Origin: Escherichia coli
Lineage (GTDB): Bacteria > Pseudomonadota > Gammaproteobacteria > Enterobacterales > Enterobacteriaceae
Assembly (NCBI RefSeq): GCF_044324875.1
Contig: NZ_CP172185.1
Direction: 5' to 3' (one strand)
Length of the DNA: 64,000 nucleotides
Position 1 is the stretch's first letter, and the number at the start of each line of letters is the position of its first letter. The notes under the pieces are model-generated. The model saw nothing but the letters and a program-made list of their open reading frames with translations. It did not search any database and was not told the origin of the DNA. The translations under genes and the position numbers were made by a program. This document shows positions 9,188-58,503 of the stretch, piece by piece.

Positions 9188-9667
9188 ATGAAACGAATTG
9201 CGTTTGTGGGTACCGTCGGGGCAGGAAAAACAACGTTATTTAATGCGTTGCAGGGGAATTATACCCTCGCCAGAAAAACACAGACCGTGGAATTTAATGA
9301 TAAGGGCGATATTGATACGCCGGGTGAATATTTTAGCCATCCCCGCTGGTATCACGCCTTAATTACCACGCTACAGGATGTGGACATGCTGATCTATGTC
9401 CATGGCGCAAATGACCCGGAAAGCCGATTGCCTGCCGGGTTGCTGGATATTGGCGTCAGCAAACGGCAAATCGCCATCATCAGTAAAACGGACATGCCGG
9501 ATGCTGACGTCGCCGCAACGCGAAAGTTATTGCTTGAGACGGGCTTCGAGGAGCCGATTTTCGAGCTAAACAGCCACGACCCGCAAAGCGTGCAGCAACT
9601 GGTGGATTATCTGGCATCTCTCACCAAACAGGAGGAAGCAGGTGAAAAAACTCATCACAGCGAATGA
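9188..9667 (+). CDS. eutP: ethanolamine utilisation protein EutP, P-loop NTPase
   Basis: 159 aa; GTVGAGKTT Walker A motif; operon position. Confidence 0.9.
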   Translation: MKRIAFVGTVGAGKTTLFNALQGNYTLARKTQTVEFNDKGDIDTPGEYFSHPRWYHALITTLQDVDMLIYVHGANDPESRLPAGLLDIGVSKRQIAIISKTDMPDADVAATRKLLLETGFEEPIFELNSHDPQSVQQLVDYLASLTKQEEAGEKTHHSE

Positions 9668-10343
9668 TATTCGTGAAGCACACGCGCGCGGCGAACAGGC
9701 AATGTCCGTGGTTCTGCGCGCCAGCATTATTACCCCGGAAGCCCGTGAAGTGGCAGATCTACTGGGTTTTACCATCACTGAATGTGATGAATCGACCCCG
9801 GTAACGGCGTCCGTTCCCGCCAGCGTGCCAGCCGATAAAACCGAAAGCCAGCGCATCCGCGAAACCATCATCGCCCAGCTACCGGAAGGCCAGTTTACCG
9901 AAAGCCTGGTCGCGCAGCTGATGGAAAAAGTGATGAAGGAAAAACAGTCACTGGAGCAGGGTGCAATGCAGCCGAGTTTCAAATCGGTTACCGGCAAAGG
10001 CGGCATCAAAGTTATTGATGGCAGCAGCGTCAAGTTTGGTCGTTTTGACGGCGCACAGCCACACTGCGTCGGATTAACGGATCTGGTCACCGGAGACGAC
10101 GGCAGCAGCATGGCCGCTGGTTTTATGCAGTGGGAGAACGCCTTCTTCCCGTGGACCCTGAACTATGACGAAATCGACATGGTACTGGAAGGGGAACTGC
10201 ACGTTCGCCACGAAGGCGAAACCATGATCGCCAAAGCAGGCGACGTGATGTTTATCCCGAAAGGCTCCAGCATCGAATTTGGTACGACATCCAGCGTGAA
10301 ATTCCTGTATGTCGCCTGGCCGGCTAACTGGCAATCCCTATGA
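9642..10343 (+). CDS. eutQ: ethanolamine utilisation protein EutQ, cupin domain
   Basis: 233 aa ORF recognised as EutQ; start overlaps eutP 3' end by 26 bp. Confidence 0.88.
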   Translation: MKKLITANDIREAHARGEQAMSVVLRASIITPEAREVADLLGFTITECDESTPVTASVPASVPADKTESQRIRETIIAQLPEGQFTESLVAQLMEKVMKEKQSLEQGAMQPSFKSVTGKGGIKVIDGSSVKFGRFDGAQPHCVGLTDLVTGDDGSSMAAGFMQWENAFFPWTLNYDEIDMVLEGELHVRHEGETMIAKAGDVMFIPKGSSIEFGTTSSVKFLYVAWPANWQSL

Positions 10344-11143
10344 AAGATTTCATCACCGAAGCATGGCTAAGAGCGAACCATACGCTCAGCGAAGGCGCAG
10401 AGATCCATCTCCCTGCGGACAGTCGCCTGACGCCCTCTGCCCGGGAGTTGCTGGAAAGCCGCCATCTGCGCATCAAGTTTATTGACGAGCAGGGCCGCCT
10501 GTTTGTTGACGATGAACAGCAGCAGCCGCAGCCCGTTCATGGGCTGACCAGTAGCGATGAACATCCGCAGGCGTGCTGCGAACTGTGCCGCCAGCCGGTA
10601 GCAAAAAAGCCGGATACGCTGACTCACCTGTCGGCGGAAAAAATGGTCGCCAAAAGCGATCCGCGCCTGGGTTTTCGCGCTGTTCTCGACAGCACCATTG
10701 CGCTGGCAGTGTGGCTGCAAATTGAACTGGCAGAACCGTGGCAGCCATGGCTGGCGGACATCCGCTCGCGTCTTGGCAACATTATGCGCGCCGATGCGCT
10801 CGGGGAACCGCTGGCCTACCAGGCGATTGTCGGGCTTTCTGACGAAGATCTGCATCGGCTTTCTCATCAGCCGCTGCGCTATCTCGACCACGATCATCTG
10901 GTGCCGGAAGCCAGCCACGGGCGCGATGCTGCGTTGCTCAATCTGCTACGCACCAAAGTGCGGGAAACCGAAACCGTAGCGGCGCAGGTGTTTATAACCC
11001 GCAGTTTTGAAGTATTACGCCCGGACATCTTGCAGGCGCTGAACCGCCTTTCGAGCACGGTCTACGTGATGATGATCCTGAGCGTAACGAAGCAGCCTCT
11101 AACGGTGAAGCAGATCCAACAACGACTGGGGGAAACGCAATGA
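10340..11143 (+). CDS. eutT: EutT corrinoid adenosyltransferase
   Basis: 267 aa ORF; operon position; start overlaps the eutQ stop. Confidence 0.88.
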
Positions 11144-14307: not shown

Positions 14308-15144
14308 ATGGCGCACGACGAACAATGGCTCATCCCGCGTCTGCAAACGGCGGCAACGCTGTGTAACCAGACGCCTGCCGCAACGGAATCTCCGCTGTGG
14401 CTGGGGGTGGATCTGGGCACCTGCGATGTGGTGTCGATGGTTGTCGACCGCGACGGTCAGCCGGTGGCGGTATGCCTCGACTGGGCTGATGTGGTCCGCG
14501 ACGGCATCGTCTGGGATTTCTTCGGTGCGGTCACCATTGTTCGTCGCCATCTTGACACCCTCGAGCAGCAATTCGGTCGCCGTTTTAGCCATGCGGCGAC
14601 CTCTTTTCCTCCAGGTACGGACCCGCGTATTTCCATCAACGTGCTGGAGTCTGCCGGGCTGGAAGTGAGCCATGTGCTGGATGAGCCAACCGCAGTCGCG
14701 GATCTGCTGCAACTGGACAACGCCGGTGTAGTGGATATCGGCGGCGGCACCACCGGCATTGCCATCGTGAAAAAGGGCAAGGTGACTTACTCGGCAGATG
14801 AAGCCACCGGCGGACATCACATCTCTCTGACTCTCGCCGGAAATCGTCGTATTTCGCTGGAGGAGGCAGAGCAGTACAAGCGCGGTCACGGTGAAGAGAT
14901 TTGGCCCGCGGTGAAACCGGTGTACGAAAAAATGGCGGACATTGTCGCCCGGCATATTGAAGGGCAGGGCATTACTGATTTATGGCTGGCGGGCGGCTCT
15001 TGTATGCAACCGGGCGTGGCGGAACTGTTTCGCAAACAATTCCCGGCGTTACAGGTGCATTTACCGCAGCACAGTTTGTTTATGACCCCGCTGGCGATCG
15101 CCAGTAGCGGGCGAGAGAAAGCGGAGGGGATCTATGCAAAATGA
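14308..15144 (+). CDS. eutJ: EutJ, Hsp70/actin-fold chaperone-like protein
   Basis: 278 aa; operon position. Confidence 0.88.
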   Translation: MAHDEQWLIPRLQTAATLCNQTPAATESPLWLGVDLGTCDVVSMVVDRDGQPVAVCLDWADVVRDGIVWDFFGAVTIVRRHLDTLEQQFGRRFSHAATSFPPGTDPRISINVLESAGLEVSHVLDEPTAVADLLQLDNAGVVDIGGGTTGIAIVKKGKVTYSADEATGGHHISLTLAGNRRISLEEAEQYKRGHGEEIWPAVKPVYEKMADIVARHIEGQGITDLWLAGGSCMQPGVAELFRKQFPALQVHLPQHSLFMTPLAIASSGREKAEGIYAK

Positions 15145-16321
15145 ATTGCAGACCGCGCTCTTTCAGGCGTTCGATACCCTGAATCTGCAACGGGTAAAAA
15201 CATTTAGCGTTCCACCGGTGACGCTTTGCGGTCCGGGCGCGGTGAGCAGTTGTGGGCAGCAAGCGCAAACGCGTGGGCTGAAACATCTGTTCGTGATGGC
15301 AGACAGCTTTTTGCATCAGGCAGGGATGACCGCCGGGCTGACGCGTAGCCTGGCCGTTAAAGGTATCGCCATGACGCTCTGGCCATGTCCGGTGGGCGAA
15401 CCATGCATCACCGACGTGTGTGCAGCCGTGGCGCAGTTGCGTGAATCAGGCTGTGACGGGGTGATTGCGTTTGGCGGCGGCTCGGTGCTGGATGCAGCAA
15501 AAGCCGTGGCGTTGCTGGTGACGAACCCGGATAGCACGCTGGCAGAGATGTCAGAAACCAGCGTTCTGCAACCGCGCCTGCCGTTGATTGCCATTCCAAC
15601 GACCGCCGGAACCGGCTCTGAAACCACCAACGTAACGGTGATTATCGACGCGGTGAGCGGGCGCAAGCAGGTGTTAGCCCATGCCTCGCTGATGCCGGAT
15701 GTGGCGATTCTCGACGCTGCGCTGACCGAAGGCGTGCCGTCGCATGTCACGGCGATGACCGGTATCGACGCGTTAACCCATGCTATTGAAGCGTACAGCG
15801 CGCTGAACGCCACACCGTTTACCGACAGCCTGGCGATTGGTGCCATTGCGATGATTGGCAAATCGCTGCCGAAAGCGGTGGGCTACGGTCACGACCTTGC
15901 CGCCCGCGAGAGCATGTTGCTGGCTTCATGTATGGCGGGAATGGCGTTTTCCAGTGCGGGGCTTGGGTTGTGCCACGCGATGGCGCATCAGCCAGGGGCG
16001 GCGCTGCATATTCCGCACGGTCTGGCGAACGCCATGCTACTGCCAACGGTGATGGAGTTTAACCGGATGGTCTGTCGTGAACGCTTTAGTCAGATTGGTC
16101 GGGCGCTGCGAACTAAAAAATCCGACGATCGTGACGCTATTAACGCGGTAAGTGAGCTGATTGCGGAAGTCGGGATTGGTAAACGACTGGGCGATATTGG
16201 TGCGACATCTGCGCATTACGGCGCATGGGCGCAGGCCGCGCTGGAAGATATTTGTCTGCGCAGCAACCCGCGTACCGCCAGCCTGGAGCAGATTATTGGT
16301 CTGTATGCTGCGGCGCAATAA
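15134..16321 (+). CDS. eutG: iron-containing alcohol dehydrogenase EutG
   Basis: 395 aa Fe-ADH family protein; operon position. Confidence 0.9.
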   Translation: MQNELQTALFQAFDTLNLQRVKTFSVPPVTLCGPGAVSSCGQQAQTRGLKHLFVMADSFLHQAGMTAGLTRSLAVKGIAMTLWPCPVGEPCITDVCAAVAQLRESGCDGVIAFGGGSVLDAAKAVALLVTNPDSTLAEMSETSVLQPRLPLIAIPTTAGTGSETTNVTVIIDAVSGRKQVLAHASLMPDVAILDAALTEGVPSHVTAMTGIDALTHAIEAYSALNATPFTDSLAIGAIAMIGKSLPKAVGYGHDLAARESMLLASCMAGMAFSSAGLGLCHAMAHQPGAALHIPHGLANAMLLPTVMEFNRMVCRERFSQIGRALRTKKSDDRDAINAVSELIAEVGIGKRLGDIGATSAHYGAWAQAALEDICLRSNPRTASLEQIIGLYAAAQ

Positions 16322-16334
16322 AAGTGTACGGACA

Positions 16335-16435
16335 GTCCCCTCGCCCCTTTGGGGAGAGGGTTAGGGTGAGGGGAACAGAGTCGCGCCGGTGCAAATAATT
16401 ACCCTCACCCCGACCCCTCGGCTTCCAGAGTGAGG
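16335..16435. repeat. GC-rich palindromic intergenic repeat between eutG and eutH; family not assigned
   Basis: 16335..16377 nearly identical to 2957..2998, followed by an inverted partial copy (accctcaccccgacccctc). Confidence 0.6.
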
Positions 16436-16490
16436 GAAAAACCCACTTTCAGCATTGGCAATAAATAACAACTAACAGGGAGTAAAGGCG

Positions 16491-17717
16491 ATGGGAATTA
16501 ACGAAATCATCATGTACATCATGATGTTCTTTATGCTGATAGCTGCCGTAGACAGGATCCTGTCGCAGTTCGGCGGTTCTGCTCGTTTCCTCGGTAAGTT
16601 CGGTAAAAGTATCGAAGGATCAGGCGGTCAGTTCGAAGAAGGCTTTATGGCAATGGGCGCACTGGGCCTGGCGATGGTCGGTATGACCGCGCTGGCACCG
16701 GTACTGGCTCACGTACTCGGGCCGGTGATTATCCCGGTTTACGAAATGCTCGGCGCAAACCCATCGATGTTCGCCGGAACACTGCTGGCGTGCGATATGG
16801 GCGGCTTCTTCCTCGCCAAAGAGCTGGCGGGCGGCGACGTAGCAGCGTGGCTATACTCTGGGTTAATTCTCGGGTCGATGATGGGGCCAACGATTGTGTT
16901 TTCCATTCCGGTGGCGCTCGGCATTATCGAACCTTCTGACCGTCGTTATCTGGCGCTCGGCGTGCTGGCGGGCATTGTGACCATTCCGATTGGCTGTATT
17001 GCCGGTGGTCTGGTGGCTATGTATTCCGGTGTGCAGATCAACGGTCAGCCAGTGGAATTCACCTTTGCCCTGATCCTGATGAACATGATCCCGGTACTTA
17101 TCGTCGCGGTACTGGTGGCGCTGGGGCTGAAATTCATCCCGGAAAAAATGATCAACGGCTTCCAGATCTTCGCCAAATTCCTCGTTGCATTGATCACCCT
17201 CGGTCTTGCCGCTGCGGTAGTGAAATTCCTGCTCGGTTGGGAACTGATCCCCGGTCTGGATCCGATCTTCATGGCTCCAGGCGATAAACCCGGTGAAGTG
17301 ATGCGCGCCATTGAAGTTATCGGTTCTATCTCCTGCGTGCTGTTAGGGGCGTACCCGATGGTACTGCTGCTGACCCGCTGGTTTGAAAAACCGCTGATGA
17401 GCGTCGGTAAGGTGCTGAATATGAACAACATCGCGGCAGCTGGCATGGTGGCAACGCTTGCCAACAACATCCCAATGTTTGGCATGATGAAGCAGATGGA
17501 TACCCGCGGCAAAGTCATCAACTGCGCCTTCGCCGTTTCCGCTGCTTTCGCCCTGGGTGACCACTTAGGCTTCGCCGCTGCCAACATGAACGCCATGATT
17601 TTCCCGATGATTGTCGGCAAGTTGATCGGCGGCGTAACGGCGATTGGCGTGGCGATGATGCTGGTGCCAAAAGAAGACGCGACCGCGGCCAAAACCGAAG
17701 CGGAGGCACAATCGTGA
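16491..17717 (+). CDS. eutH: ethanolamine permease EutH
   Basis: 408 aa polytopic membrane protein; operon position. Confidence 0.92.
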   Translation: MGINEIIMYIMMFFMLIAAVDRILSQFGGSARFLGKFGKSIEGSGGQFEEGFMAMGALGLAMVGMTALAPVLAHVLGPVIIPVYEMLGANPSMFAGTLLACDMGGFFLAKELAGGDVAAWLYSGLILGSMMGPTIVFSIPVALGIIEPSDRRYLALGVLAGIVTIPIGCIAGGLVAMYSGVQINGQPVEFTFALILMNMIPVLIVAVLVALGLKFIPEKMINGFQIFAKFLVALITLGLAAAVVKFLLGWELIPGLDPIFMAPGDKPGEVMRAIEVIGSISCVLLGAYPMVLLLTRWFEKPLMSVGKVLNMNNIAAAGMVATLANNIPMFGMMKQMDTRGKVINCAFAVSAAFALGDHLGFAAANMNAMIFPMIVGKLIGGVTAIGVAMMLVPKEDATAAKTEAEAQS

Positions 17718-19117
17718 ACACTCGCCAGCTACTGAGCGTCGGTATCGATATCGGCACCACCACCACCCAGGTGATCTTCTCCCACCTGGAGCTGGTTAAC
17801 CGTGCGGCGGTGTCGCAGGTGCCGCGCTACGAATTCATCAAACGCGAAATTAGCTGGCAAAGCCCGGTGTTCTTTACCCCTGTCGATAAACAGGGTGGTT
17901 TAAAAGAAGCGGAACTGAAATCGCTGATTTTAGAGCAATATCAGGCTGCGGGCATTGCGCCGGAAAGCGTTGATTCTGGTGCCATCATCATCACCGGTGA
18001 AAGCGCGAAAACCCGCAACGCTCGCCCGGCGGTGATGACGCTCTCCCAGTCGCTGGGCGATTTTGTCGTCGCCAGCGCCGGGCCGCATCTCGAATCCGTG
18101 ATCGCCGGTCACGGTGCCGGGGCGCAAACCCTTTCTGAACAACGGCTGTGTCGGGTACTGAATATCGACATCGGCGGTGGCACCGCGAACTACGCCCTGT
18201 TCGATGCCGGAAAAATCAGCGGCACTGCCTGCCTCAACGTCGGTGGTCGCCTGCTGGAAACCGACAGCCAGGGGCGCGTGGTTTACGCTCATAAACCGGG
18301 GCAGATGATTGTGGATGAGTGCTTCGGTGCAGGCAGTGACGCCCGTTCGCTGACCGGCGCGCAGCTGGTGCAGGTTACCCGCCGGATGGCAGAGCTGATT
18401 GTCGAAGTGATTGACGGAACGCTCTCGCCGCTCGCGCAGGCATTAATGCAAACCGGTTTGCTGCCCGCAGGTGTTACGCCCGAAATCATTACGCTTTCTG
18501 GCGGCGTGGGCGAATGTTATCGCCACCAGCCCGCCGCCCCGTTCTGTTTTGCCGATATCGGCCCGCTGCTGGCAACGGCGCTGTATGACCATCCGCGCCT
18601 GCGTGAGATGAACGTGCAGTTTCCGGCGCAAACCGTGCGCGCCACGGTGATTGGCGCGGGTGCACATACCCTTTCGCTCTCTGGCAGCACAATCTGGCTG
18701 GAGGGCGTCCAACTGCCGCTGCGCAATTTGCCGGTGGCGATCCCGATTGATGAAACGGATCTGGTGAGTGCCTGGCAACAGGCGCTGATTCAGCTGGATC
18801 TTGATCCCAAAACTGACGCGTACGTGCTGGCGCTTCCCGCCTCGCTGCCTGTGCGTTACGCCGCGGTACTGACGGTCATCAACGCGCTGGTCGATTTCGT
18901 CGCGCGTTTTCCGAATCCGCATCCCCTGTTGGTGGTGGCCGGGCAGGACTTTGGTAAAGCTCTGGGCATGTTGTTGCGCCCACAGCTACAACAACTCCCG
19001 TTGGCAGTCATTGACGAAGTGATTGTCCGCGCGGGGGACTATATCGACATTGGTACGCCTCTTTTTGGCGGATCGGTTGTGCCGGTGACGGTGAAATCAC
19101 TCGCATTTCCTTCCTGA
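17714..19117 (+). CDS. eutA: ethanolamine ammonia-lyase reactivase EutA
   Basis: 467 aa; start overlaps eutH stop; operon position. Confidence 0.92.
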   Translation: MNTRQLLSVGIDIGTTTTQVIFSHLELVNRAAVSQVPRYEFIKREISWQSPVFFTPVDKQGGLKEAELKSLILEQYQAAGIAPESVDSGAIIITGESAKTRNARPAVMTLSQSLGDFVVASAGPHLESVIAGHGAGAQTLSEQRLCRVLNIDIGGGTANYALFDAGKISGTACLNVGGRLLETDSQGRVVYAHKPGQMIVDECFGAGSDARSLTGAQLVQVTRRMAELIVEVIDGTLSPLAQALMQTGLLPAGVTPEIITLSGGVGECYRHQPAAPFCFADIGPLLATALYDHPRLREMNVQFPAQTVRATVIGAGAHTLSLSGSTIWLEGVQLPLRNLPVAIPIDETDLVSAWQQALIQLDLDPKTDAYVLALPASLPVRYAAVLTVINALVDFVARFPNPHPLLVVAGQDFGKALGMLLRPQLQQLPLAVIDEVIVRAGDYIDIGTPLFGGSVVPVTVKSLAFPS

Positions 19118-19128
19118 GGGAACGACTT

Positions 19129-20496
19129 ATGAAACTAAAGACCACATTGTTCGGCAATGTATATCAGTTTAAGGATGTAAAAGAGGTGCTGGCTAAAGCC
19201 AACGAACTGCGTTCGGGGGATGTGCTGGCGGGCGTCGCAGCGGCAAGCTCACAGGAGCGCGTGGCGGCAAAGCAGGTGTTGTCGGAAATGACCGTAGCGG
19301 ACATCCGCAATAATCCGGTGATTGCTTATGAAGATGACTGCGTGACGCGGCTGATTCAGGACGACGTTAACGAAACGGCCTACAACCAGATTAAAAACTG
19401 GAGCATCAGCGAACTGCGTGAATACGTCCTGAGCGACGAAACCAGCGTTGACGACATTGCCTTTACCCGCAAAGGGTTGACCTCGGAAGTGGTCGCGGCG
19501 GTAGCGAAGATTTGCTCCAACGCGGACCTGATCTACGGCGCGAAGAAAATGCCGGTGATCAAAAAGGCCAATACCACCATCGGTATTCCGGGCACCTTCA
19601 GCGCCCGCTTGCAGCCAAACGACACCCGTGACGACGTGCAAAGTATCGCCGCGCAAATCTACGAAGGGCTTTCTTTCGGGGTGGGCGATGCGGTGATCGG
19701 CGTTAACCCGGTGACTGACGACGTGGAAAACTTAAGCCGCGTGTTGGACACCATCTATGGCGTGATCGACAAATACAACATTCCGACCCAGGGCTGCGTG
19801 CTGGCGCACGTCACCACCCAGATTGAAGCAATTCGTCGCGGCGCGCCTGGCGGACTGATTTTCCAGAGTATCTGCGGCAGCGAAAAAGGGCTGAAAGAGT
19901 TTGGCGTGGAACTGGCGATGCTCGACGAAGCGCGCGCAGTGGGCGCGGAGTTCAACCGTATCGCCGGGGAAAACTGCCTCTACTTCGAAACCGGACAAGG
20001 CTCTGCGCTATCCGCTGGCGCTAACTTCGGCGCAGACCAGGTGACGATGGAAGCGCGTAACTACGGGCTGGCGCGTCATTACGATCCGTTTATCGTCAAC
20101 ACCGTGGTCGGCTTTATTGGGCCGGAGTATCTCTACAACGACCGCCAGATTATCCGTGCGGGCTTAGAAGATCACTTTATGGGCAAGCTGAGCGGCATCT
20201 CTATGGGCTGTGACTGCTGCTACACCAACCACGCTGACGCTGACGCTGACCAGAACCTCAACGAAAACCTCATGATCCTGCTCGCCACCGCAGGCTGCAA
20301 CTACATCATGGGGATGCCGCTGGGCGATGACATCATGCTCAACTATCAGACCACCGCATTCCACGACACTGCCACTGTGCGTCAGTTACTCAACCTGCGC
20401 CCGTCACCGGAGTTTGAACGCTGGCTGGAAAGCATGGGCATTATGGCAAACGGTCGCCTGACCAAACGGGCGGGCGATCCGTCACTGTTCTTCTGA
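19129..20496 (+). CDS. eutB: ethanolamine ammonia-lyase large subunit
   Basis: 455 aa ORF starting MKLKTTLFGNVYQFKDVKEVLAKANELRSGDVLAGVA; recognised as EutB. Confidence 0.95.
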   Translation: MKLKTTLFGNVYQFKDVKEVLAKANELRSGDVLAGVAAASSQERVAAKQVLSEMTVADIRNNPVIAYEDDCVTRLIQDDVNETAYNQIKNWSISELREYVLSDETSVDDIAFTRKGLTSEVVAAVAKICSNADLIYGAKKMPVIKKANTTIGIPGTFSARLQPNDTRDDVQSIAAQIYEGLSFGVGDAVIGVNPVTDDVENLSRVLDTIYGVIDKYNIPTQGCVLAHVTTQIEAIRRGAPGGLIFQSICGSEKGLKEFGVELAMLDEARAVGAEFNRIAGENCLYFETGQGSALSAGANFGADQVTMEARNYGLARHYDPFIVNTVVGFIGPEYLYNDRQIIRAGLEDHFMGKLSGISMGCDCCYTNHADADADQNLNENLMILLATAGCNYIMGMPLGDDIMLNYQTTAFHDTATVRQLLNLRPSPEFERWLESMGIMANGRLTKRAGDPSLFF

Positions 20497-35815: not shown

Positions 35816-36690
35816 TGGCGGAAGTGACACAGTTGAAGCGTTATGACGCGCGCCCGATTAACTGGGGCAAATGGTTTCTGATTGGCATCGGGATGCTGGT
35901 TTCGGCGTTCATCCTGCTGGTGCCGATGATTTACATCTTCGTGCAGGCGTTCAGCAAAGGGCTGATGCCAGTTTTACAGAATCTGGCCGATCCAGACATG
36001 CTGCACGCCATCTGGCTGACGGTGATGATTGCGCTGATTGCCGTACCGGTGAACCTGGTGTTCGGCATTCTGCTGGCCTGGCTGGTGACGCGCTTTAACT
36101 TCCCCGGACGCCAGTTGCTGCTGACGCTGCTGGACATTCCGTTTGCCGTGTCGCCGGTGGTTGCCGGTCTGGTGTATTTGCTATTTTACGGCTCTAACGG
36201 CCCGCTCGGTGGCTGGCTGGATGAACATAATCTGCAAATTATGTTCTCCTGGCCGGGAATGGTGCTGGTCACCATCTTCGTGACGTGTCCGTTTGTGGTG
36301 CGTGAGCTGGTGCCGGTGATGTTAAGCCAGGGCAGCCAGGAAGACGAAGCGGCAATTTTGCTTGGCGCGTCTGGCTGGCAGATGTTTCGCCGCGTCACGC
36401 TGCCGAACATCCGCTGGGCGCTGCTTTATGGCGTGGTGCTGACCAACGCCCGCGCGATTGGCGAGTTTGGTGCGGTGTCGGTGGTTTCCGGCTCGATTCG
36501 CGGCGAAACACTTTCGCTGCCGTTACAGATTGAATTGCTGGAGCAGGACTACAACACCGTCGGCTCCTTTACCGCCGCTGCGCTGTTGACGCTGATGGCG
36601 ATTATCACCCTGTTTTTAAAGAGTATGTTGCAGTGGCGTCTGGAGAATCAGGAAAAACGCGCGCAGCAGGAGGAACATCATGAGCATTGA
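35815..36690 (+). CDS. cysW: sulfate/thiosulfate ABC transporter permease
   Basis: 291 aa membrane protein; start overlaps the cysU stop. Confidence 0.95.
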
Positions 36691-55018: not shown

Positions 55019-55078
55019 ATCGCAGATAGCAAAAAAGCGCCTTTAGGGCGCTTTTTTACATTGGTGGGTCGTGCAGGA
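55019..55078 (-). repeat. duplicated copy of the lysV terminator plus the last 17 nt of tRNA-Lys (tRNA 3' fragment)
   Basis: 60 bp identical to 55175..55234; contains tggtgggtcgtgcagga, the complement of the tRNA-Lys 3' end. Confidence 0.75.
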
Positions 55079-55184
55079 TGACTCGCTTCGCTCGCCCTTC
55101 GGGCCGTCGCCGCGAGCGGCTCCGTTGTTTCGCTGCGCTCAACTCGAACCTGCTGCAGGTTCGAATCTTTGAGTATCGCAGATA

Positions 55185-55213
55185 GCAAAAAAGCGCCTTT
55201 AGGGCGCTTTTTT
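55185..55213 (-). terminator. rho-independent terminator of the valU-valX-valY-lysV tRNA operon
   Basis: aaaaaagcgcc-ttta-gggcgctttttt hairpin immediately 3' of lysV. Confidence 0.75.
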
Positions 55214-55217
55214 ACAT

Positions 55218-55293
55218 TGGTGGGTCGTGCAGGATTCGAACCTGCGACCAATTGATTAAAAGTCAACTGCTCTACCAACTGAGCTAACGACCC
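55218..55293 (-). tRNA. lysV: tRNA-Lys (anticodon UUU)
   Basis: 76 nt; reverse complement reads gggtcgttagctcagttggtagagcagttgacttttaatcaattggtcgcaggttcgaatcctgcacgacccacca. Confidence 0.95.
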
Positions 55294-55297
55294 GAAG

Positions 55298-55373
55298 TGG
55301 TGGGTGATGACGGGATCGAACCGCCGACCCCCTCCTTGTAAGGGAGGTGCTCTCCCAGCTGAGCTAATCACCC
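55298..55373 (-). tRNA. valY: tRNA-Val (anticodon UAC)
   Basis: 76 nt; reverse complement reads gggtgattagctcagctgggagagcacctcccttacaaggagggggtcggcggttcgatcccgtcatcacccacca. Confidence 0.95.
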
Positions 55374-55419
55374 ACTTCGGTACTTCACATTTTTACAAGA
55401 AATTTAGCTGGCGAGAAAG

Positions 55420-55495
55420 TGGTGGGTGATGACGGGATCGAACCGCCGACCCCCTCCTTGTAAGGGAGGTGCTCTCCCAGCTGAGCTAATCACCC
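55420..55495 (-). tRNA. valX: tRNA-Val (anticodon UAC)
   Basis: Identical 76 nt copy. Confidence 0.95.
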
Positions 55496-55538
55496 ACTTC
55501 TCAATTTCTTGCTACACGGCGGAGACTACATAAAGAAG

Positions 55539-55614
55539 TGGTGGGTGATGACGGGATCGAACCGCCGACCCCCTCCTTGTAAGGGAGGTGCTCTCCCAGC
55601 TGAGCTAATCACCC
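55539..55614 (-). tRNA. valU: tRNA-Val (anticodon UAC)
   Basis: Identical 76 nt copy; first gene of the tRNA operon. Confidence 0.95.
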
Positions 55615-58312: not shown

Positions 58313-58388
<76 letters not shown>

Positions 58389-58427
58389 AATTTTGCACCC
58401 AGCAAATTTGGTACGTAAACGCATCGT

Positions 58428-58503
<76 letters not shown>

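Follow-up and report, generated by a model that had tools for sequence, protein, structure and literature searches.

The junction of eutP and eutQ in the ethanolamine-utilisation (eut) operon of Escherichia coli, where the two reading frames share 26 nt, raises the question of whether so long an overlap conceals something more than two ordinary neighbouring genes; a first-pass annotation had singled it out as the kind of site where a programmed frameshift or a mis-assigned start could hide. On the evidence set out below, we consider it very probable that eutQ starts at GTG 9642 with an AGGAGG of its own, that the overlap is passive and functionless, and that initiation at eutQ is mostly independent of eutP. 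The overlap is an ordinary by-product of where eutQ starts, and one that is already known, being annotated in thousands of genomes and noted in a study of Salmonella (PMC12487888).

Overlapping junctions of the window

The window, by which we mean the whole 64,000-nt stretch of DNA that was analysed, carries maeB, the eut operon (eutSPQTDMNEJGHABCLKR) and then cysPUWAM, all on the plus strand; E. coli genomes match it at 96–99% identity. The features referred to in the text are as follows:

9188–9667, plus strand: eutP coding sequence (ATG…TGA, 159 aa), its final 26 nt within eutQ; RefSeq agrees
9630–9635, plus strand: eutQ Shine-Dalgarno (SD) sequence AGGAGG, inside the eutP codons for Gln-Glu-Glu and 6 nt 5′ of the GTG
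9642–9644, plus strand: eutQ start codon GTG, the first start codon past the upstream in-frame stop
9642–10343, plus strand: eutQ coding sequence (GTG…TGA, 233 aa)
9642–9667, plus strand: eutP/eutQ dual-coding overlap, 26 nt, encoding EutQ aa 1–9 (MKKLITAND) and EutP aa 152–159 (GEKTHHSE) plus stop
9645–9650, plus strand: A6 run (EutQ Lys2-Lys3), the sole +1 re-pairing candidate in the overlap (AAA_A, eutP frame)
9665–9667, plus strand: eutP stop codon TGA, formed from eutQ Asn8 (AAT) and the GA of Asp9
9702–9704, plus strand: next in-frame ATG (EutQ Met21), an alternative start that we reject
10340–10343, plus strand: eutQ/eutT overlap, 4 nt (ATGA)
11140–11143, plus strand: eutT/eutD overlap, 4 nt (ATGA)
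15134–15144, plus strand: eutJ/eutG overlap, 11 nt, with SD GGAGGGG upstream
17714–17717, plus strand: eutH/eutA overlap, 4 nt (GTGA)
34982, plus strand: cysP/cysU overlap, 1 nt (TAATG)
35815, plus strand: cysU/cysW overlap, 1 nt (TAATG)
36680–36690, plus strand: cysW/cysA overlap, 11 nt, with SD AGGAGG upstream
55062–55614, minus strand (four), and 58313–58500, plus strand (two): tRNA gene clusters (Rfam)

All eight overlaps that the first-pass annotation had listed across the eut and cys genes are present at the lengths it gave, with sequence coordinates and RefSeq/PGAP in agreement; the RefSeq/PGAP boundaries in E. coli genomes are likewise the same for the eut and cys junctions. We also share its opinion that there is nothing novel about them, as such overlaps are common and within expectation; 707 of 2,987 co-directional gene pairs in E. 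coli (24%) are spaced at −8 to +6 nt (PMC10666635). Among longer overlaps, the series −8, −11, −14 and so on (to which −11, −23 and −26 belong) is the commoner phase by several-fold, and it persists because point mutation cannot collapse that phase to −4 or −1 (PMC10666635); the 26- and 11-nt overlaps of the window, and the 23-nt overlap of its relatives, all fall in this phase. The eutP/eutQ pair resembles the long phase-1 same-strand overlaps of Huber et al. 2023 (PMC10666635), which likewise join co-directional operon neighbours at lengths of −(3n+2) (26, 23, 11) and likewise place the downstream SD within the upstream coding sequence; we find no substantive difference, and add only that for eutP/eutQ the length also follows from the conserved N-terminus of the downstream product.

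The same gene pair, the same GTG start and the same SD are found in Salmonella enterica LT2 (PMC12487888), where the overlap is 23 nt (TAA, from GCT-AAC) as against 26 nt in the window (TGA, from AAT-GAT). The 2025 paper on Salmonella records that eutQ codons 1–9 overlap eutP, and its deletion mutant was designed accordingly (PMC12487888).

Several side observations concern other parts of the window. The eutM open reading frame (ORF) from ATG 12153 is 111 aa long and overlaps eutD by 4 nt, RefSeq giving the 97-aa form from 12195, 38 nt past eutD; eutD/eutM is thus a second eut junction at which the choice of start decides between an overlap and none. The eutB gene (19129–20496) encodes 455 aa against the usual 453; the run HADADADQNL contains one Ala-Asp more, by what looks like a 6-nt tandem duplication. 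CPZ-55, the prophage that splits the eut operon of K-12, is absent from the window, since eutA and eutB are separated by only 11 nt (19117–19129). The eutG/eutH spacer (16321–16491) measures 169 nt, against 515 nt in the closest genome, strain GN25, in which eutC is a pseudogene and eutB (RefSeq) is 1362 nt long. On the minus strand, an ORF of 181 aa runs antisense to eutQ (9566–10111), and stop-free antisense runs of 94–233 aa lie opposite eutQ in 10 of the 10 other species checked; the antisense ORF looks like a codon-bias ‘shadow’ rather than evidence for a gene. An Rfam scan of the whole window returned only tRNAs and an RtT element, far from eutP/eutQ and unrelated to it.

Initiation at eutQ

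The junction was compared across species by scanning one genome for each, which gave 55 loci, 53 of them with a recognisable eutP–eutQ junction; these 53 range from Escherichia to Pseudomonas and Xenophilus. The eutQ SD of the window pairs with the anti-SD at −10.3 kcal/mol (−5.9 for eutP), which ranks it with the strongest SDs of the operon, and a GGAGG/GAGGA-type motif precedes the start at the large majority of related junctions. RNA structure at the junction is no more stable than that of shuffled sequences (z of +0.65 to +0.89), and a structure that masks the ribosome-binding site or stimulates recoding was rejected, as nothing rose beyond the shuffled controls. In E. coli W3110 grown on ethanolamine, iBAQ places EutP at 7 ± 1 when EutQ is set to 100 (~14:1; PMC11334477), a ratio that also mirrors protein stability and detectability and does not equate to a pure translation ratio. 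An internal promoter 5′ of eutQ appears a poor candidate for the cause of this excess, none having been found in a consensus scan. We suggest from the combination of a ~100:7 protein ratio, a strong SD and an unstructured site that eutQ initiation is mostly eutP-independent; GTG 9642 would be served by the strong AGGAGG within the 3′ end of eutP, and most eutQ translation would then represent de novo initiation at this SD rather than reinitiation by ribosomes coming off eutP.

The overlaps had been read by the first-pass annotation as ‘tight translational coupling’, a description that is plausible for the 1–4-nt overlaps, with their classic geometry, and doubtful for eutP/eutQ. Textbook matches to the ATGA/TGATG type of start-stop coupling (Huber et al. 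2019, PMC6728339; reviewed in PMC12548453) are provided by eutQ/eutT, eutT/eutD, eutH/eutA, cysP/cysU and cysU/cysW. Coupling efficiency drops steeply with stop-start distance (PMC10666635, PMC12548453), and only distances of −8 to +10 nt are predictive of termination-reinitiation (PMC10666635); the 1–4-nt junctions lie within this range, with the 11-nt eutJ/eutG and cysW/cysA junctions outside it, as is eutP/eutQ at −26 nt. For coupling to operate at eutP/eutQ, ribosomes ending eutP at 9667 would have to scan back 23–26 nt and provide the main source of eutQ initiation, which we consider unlikely. It is true that the two genes are co-directional on one transcript (the operon annotation agrees), that a consensus scan found no promoter- or terminator-like site between them, that an SD so near the start could catch a scanning ribosome, and that models of short-range scanning exist (PMC12548453). 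However, unlike the ATGA/TGATG junctions, this one lies beyond the range of efficient reinitiation, it has a strong SD, and its downstream product is some 14-fold more abundant than its upstream one, an excess that is impossible from 1:1 reinitiation (PMC11334477); moreover, the length of the overlap varies between lineages, with a gap in its place in Morganella and Serratia. Some reinitiation at eutQ by backward-scanning ribosomes may nonetheless occur.

More doubtful again is the idea that the embedded SD and the 23–26-nt overlap together act as a device for setting the EutQ:EutP ratio, accompanied in Escherichia by trace slippage on the A6 run. Such a device would cover Escherichia, Citrobacter and Salmonella, and might help to fix the ratio at ~14:1: ribosomes that are finishing eutP might be obstructed by 30S subunits loading at the start of eutQ, or by pausing that the SD induces, and terminating eutP ribosomes might occlude the eutQ start; +1 slippage on the A6 run could, in Escherichia only, give rise to a minor EutP–EutQ fusion. 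Neither the ratio device nor the trace slippage is backed by conservation, and we regard the proposal as distinctly improbable.

The start of eutQ at GTG 9642 is correctly assigned. The tblastn match starts at EutQ residue 1 in 53 of 53 junctions, and the codon homologous to GTG 9642 is ATG or GTG in every one of them, as well as in the window: GTG in Escherichia, Citrobacter, Salmonella, Klebsiella, Pseudocitrobacter, Intestinirhabdus and one Pluralibacter MAG, and ATG in Buttiauxella, Yokenella, Entomohabitans, Pluralibacter gergoviae, Morganella, Serratia, Pseudomonas and Xenophilus. When EutQ was searched against 1.84 billion representatives (709 homologue clusters), the alignments of full-length homologues at 27–50% identity were found to begin at their own residue 1–4; 26–27 aligned homologues (27–67% identity) line up from Met1-Lys2, with Lys2 at least 90% conserved, and the same alignment gives an N-terminal module consensus of MKKLITAxDI...IITPxAxDxAxxxGI. 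The NCBIfam EutQ equivalog NF012001 is matched over positions 1–233 of 233, at 501 bits against a cut-off of 193.

The suspicion that the eutQ start had been mis-assigned is not borne out, given the homologous ATG or GTG at all 53 junctions and the Met-Lys start shared by distant homologues. A true start at ATG 9702 (Met21), which would do away with the overlap, has in its favour that it is in frame 60 nt downstream of the GTG and that GTG is rarer as a start than ATG, but we give it next to no credence: its use would remove residues 1–20, which are conserved to below 30% identity and begin exactly at Met1-Lys2, ATG replaces GTG at the homologous position in other genera, several genera have Ile, Val or Leu at position 21, there is no SD 5′ of 9702, and the N-terminal module is functionally required (PMC12487888, PMC4827028). 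Extension of eutQ upstream was also rejected, the frame being open for 24 codons without an ATG, GTG or TTG; in other genera an in-frame stop often lies only 4–14 codons 5′ of eutQ, which rules out longer forms of EutQ. Our literature search found no paper treating eutQ by ribosome profiling, and hence no direct mapping of its start site.

Overlap length and reading frame

The spacing of eutP and eutQ varies by lineage, as an overlap of 26, 23 or 4 nt or a gap of 4–15 nt. Taking the 53 loci together with the window, the 54 junctions fall into the following classes:

GTG start, 23-nt overlap: 23 of 54 junctions
ATG start, 4-nt overlap: 11 of 54
ATG start, 12-nt gap: 8 of 54
GTG start, 26-nt overlap: 5 of 54
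ATG start, 26-nt overlap: 2 of 54
various starts, with other gaps or a disrupted eutP: 5 of 54

These lengths are fixed by the reading phase of eutP together with the N-terminal peptide of EutQ. We enumerated all synonymous encodings of MKKLITANDIRE for the eutP stop codons that they allow: in the Escherichia phase, a stop first becomes possible at Ala7-Asn8 (GCT-AAY, giving TAA and 23 nt) and next at Asn8-Asp9 (AAT-GAY, giving TGA and 26 nt), and in the other phase Lys2 always yields NTGA, that is, a 4-nt overlap. The enumerated positions coincide exactly with the 23, 26 and 4 nt observed. The overlap reaches 26 nt in Escherichia because Ala7 is encoded by GCG, and ends at 23 nt in Citrobacter, Salmonella and Klebsiella because it is encoded by GCT; lineages with a 4-nt overlap have the two genes in another relative phase. 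Mechanistically, the EutP frame simply continues through fixed EutQ codons to the first stop that synonymous choices permit; where eutP and eutQ share a phase, eutP has to end before the SD, leaving a gap. As an account of the overlap this is a tidy explanation, and no discovery.

The pattern of substitution points in the same direction. Across the 30 loci with overlaps of 23–26 nt, the variable sites are third positions of eutQ, and in the GTG-start genera each substitution within the overlap is silent in eutQ yet alters the EutP tail, which reads GEKTHHSE, GEKTYHS, GEETNHS, GEETHYR and others; residue changes in EutQ are confined to Yokenella and Entomohabitans, the two ATG-start genera among these loci. 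The Pfam PduV-EutP domain spans EutP aa 1–143, so that the tail lies past it; the NCBIfam EutP equivalog matches over 1–159 of 159. With variation that is silent for EutQ and a EutP tail outside the Pfam domain, it is the eutQ frame that is constrained, with the EutP tail a passive read-through. On this basis the 26-nt overlap would have no function of its own, and MKKLITAND… would be strongly conserved because the shell-binding module of helices H1/H2 begins there; in published work, the binding site of these EutQ helices is the EutL-EutM interface of the microcompartment shell, and the N-terminal region is required for shell and cargo to associate (PMC12487888, PMC4827028). Of 5409 E. coli records, 5286 share an identical 90-nt junction; this fits dual constraint, although selection on the overlap itself is another possible reading.

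Nothing conserved, whether slippery site, structure or frame relation, supports a programmed frameshift in the overlap. The eutQ gene lies in the +1 frame of eutP. No −1 slippery heptamer of the form X_XXY_YYZ occurs in eutP, and −1 frameshifting was rejected on this ground and because the −1 frame meets a TGA at GGTGA. At a prfB-type +1 site, an SD-like element lies a few nucleotides 5′ of a slippery codon that is followed by a slow or stop codon. The eutP/eutQ junction is similar in that an SD-like AGGTG precedes AAA_A by 2 nt and that eutQ occupies the +1 frame, and differs in that its A site holds no stop (the codon after AAA_A is ACT, which to our knowledge is not a rare codon), and in that neither the slippery run nor the frame relation is conserved; of a fused EutP–EutQ product from recoding of this type we found no evidence.

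We therefore place hardly any weight on +1 frameshifting, or on slippage at the A6 run, as a route to an EutP–EutQ fusion. The AAA_A at 9647–9650 would permit re-pairing of tRNA-Lys, and predicted EutP–EutQ fusions of 381–396 aa do exist in sequence databases, but these break frame at differing upstream positions, each on a single contig, and look like sporadic indels or sequencing errors; among representatives at 50% identity there is just one, an enterobacterial protein, 89% identical, whose EutP domain is truncated. In addition, the A run reads AAGAAA in 6 of the 30 junction loci, Klebsiella included, a rare allele (P0003) has one A deleted from it (A5), the following 0-frame codon is no stop, neither a −1 heptamer nor a stable structure is at hand, and the relation of the two frames differs among lineages (+1, −1, same frame or separated).

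The EutQ/EutT module and the apparent disruption of eutP in Citrobacter

The product of eutQ is, from the evidence of sequence and annotation, EutQ, the ethanolamine-utilisation acetate kinase and shell-cargo linker; it carries a Pfam PF06249 cupin domain at aa 85–232, after an N-terminal helical module, and is flanked in the eut operon by eutP and eutT. The N-terminus of EutT is a paralogous module of the EutQ type, 33% identical and gapless from Met1. This shared module of ~45 aa, with the pattern MK-x-[LF]-IT...R...H...[IL]TPxARE, lies at 9642–9790 and 10340–10490 of the window (aa 1–50 of each protein). No Pfam family covers the module, and a profile search with it retrieved only EutQ and EutT fragments; against solved structures there was no significant PDB match, with E2 peripheral-subunit-binding domains at E ~0.04. 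A weak N-terminal match was seen between EutQ aa 6–92 and the NCBIfam EutA model NF007991 (E=3e-9, far below the cut-off). As the module in EutQ is the H1/H2 region, reported to bind the EutL-EutM interface (PMC12487888), we speculate by analogy that EutT may dock on the shell by means of the same module. In other taxa there are natural fusions, in a single chain, of an EutQ cupin with Cob_adeno_trans (EutT/PduO-like), in proteins P0185 (419 aa) and P0203 (382 aa), and these parallel the ATGA junction of eutQ and eutT in the window.

In some Citrobacter representatives, eutP is seemingly disrupted or frame-shifted near its 3′ end with eutQ left intact: L025 (Citrobacter amalonaticus S646), L022 (C. 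amalonaticus AUH_CA_2023_1) and L046 (Citrobacter koseri). In C. koseri, a 1-nt insertion in the SD region leads to a GTGA junction. An eutP deletion mutant grows as wild type (PMC12487888), with which the disruption of eutP in these representatives agrees.

For annotation, our findings confirm that RefSeq delimits eutP and eutQ correctly, and show that a longish overlap need not mean either recoding or misannotation. In practical terms, when eutP is deleted or tagged, its last ~40 nt should be kept, as these hold the SD of eutQ and its first 9 codons, a precaution taken earlier in the Salmonella study (PMC12487888). More generally, the reading phase and the conserved N-terminus of the downstream product together predict the length of the overlap, and so offer a cheap form of triage for overlaps that appear ‘suspicious’.
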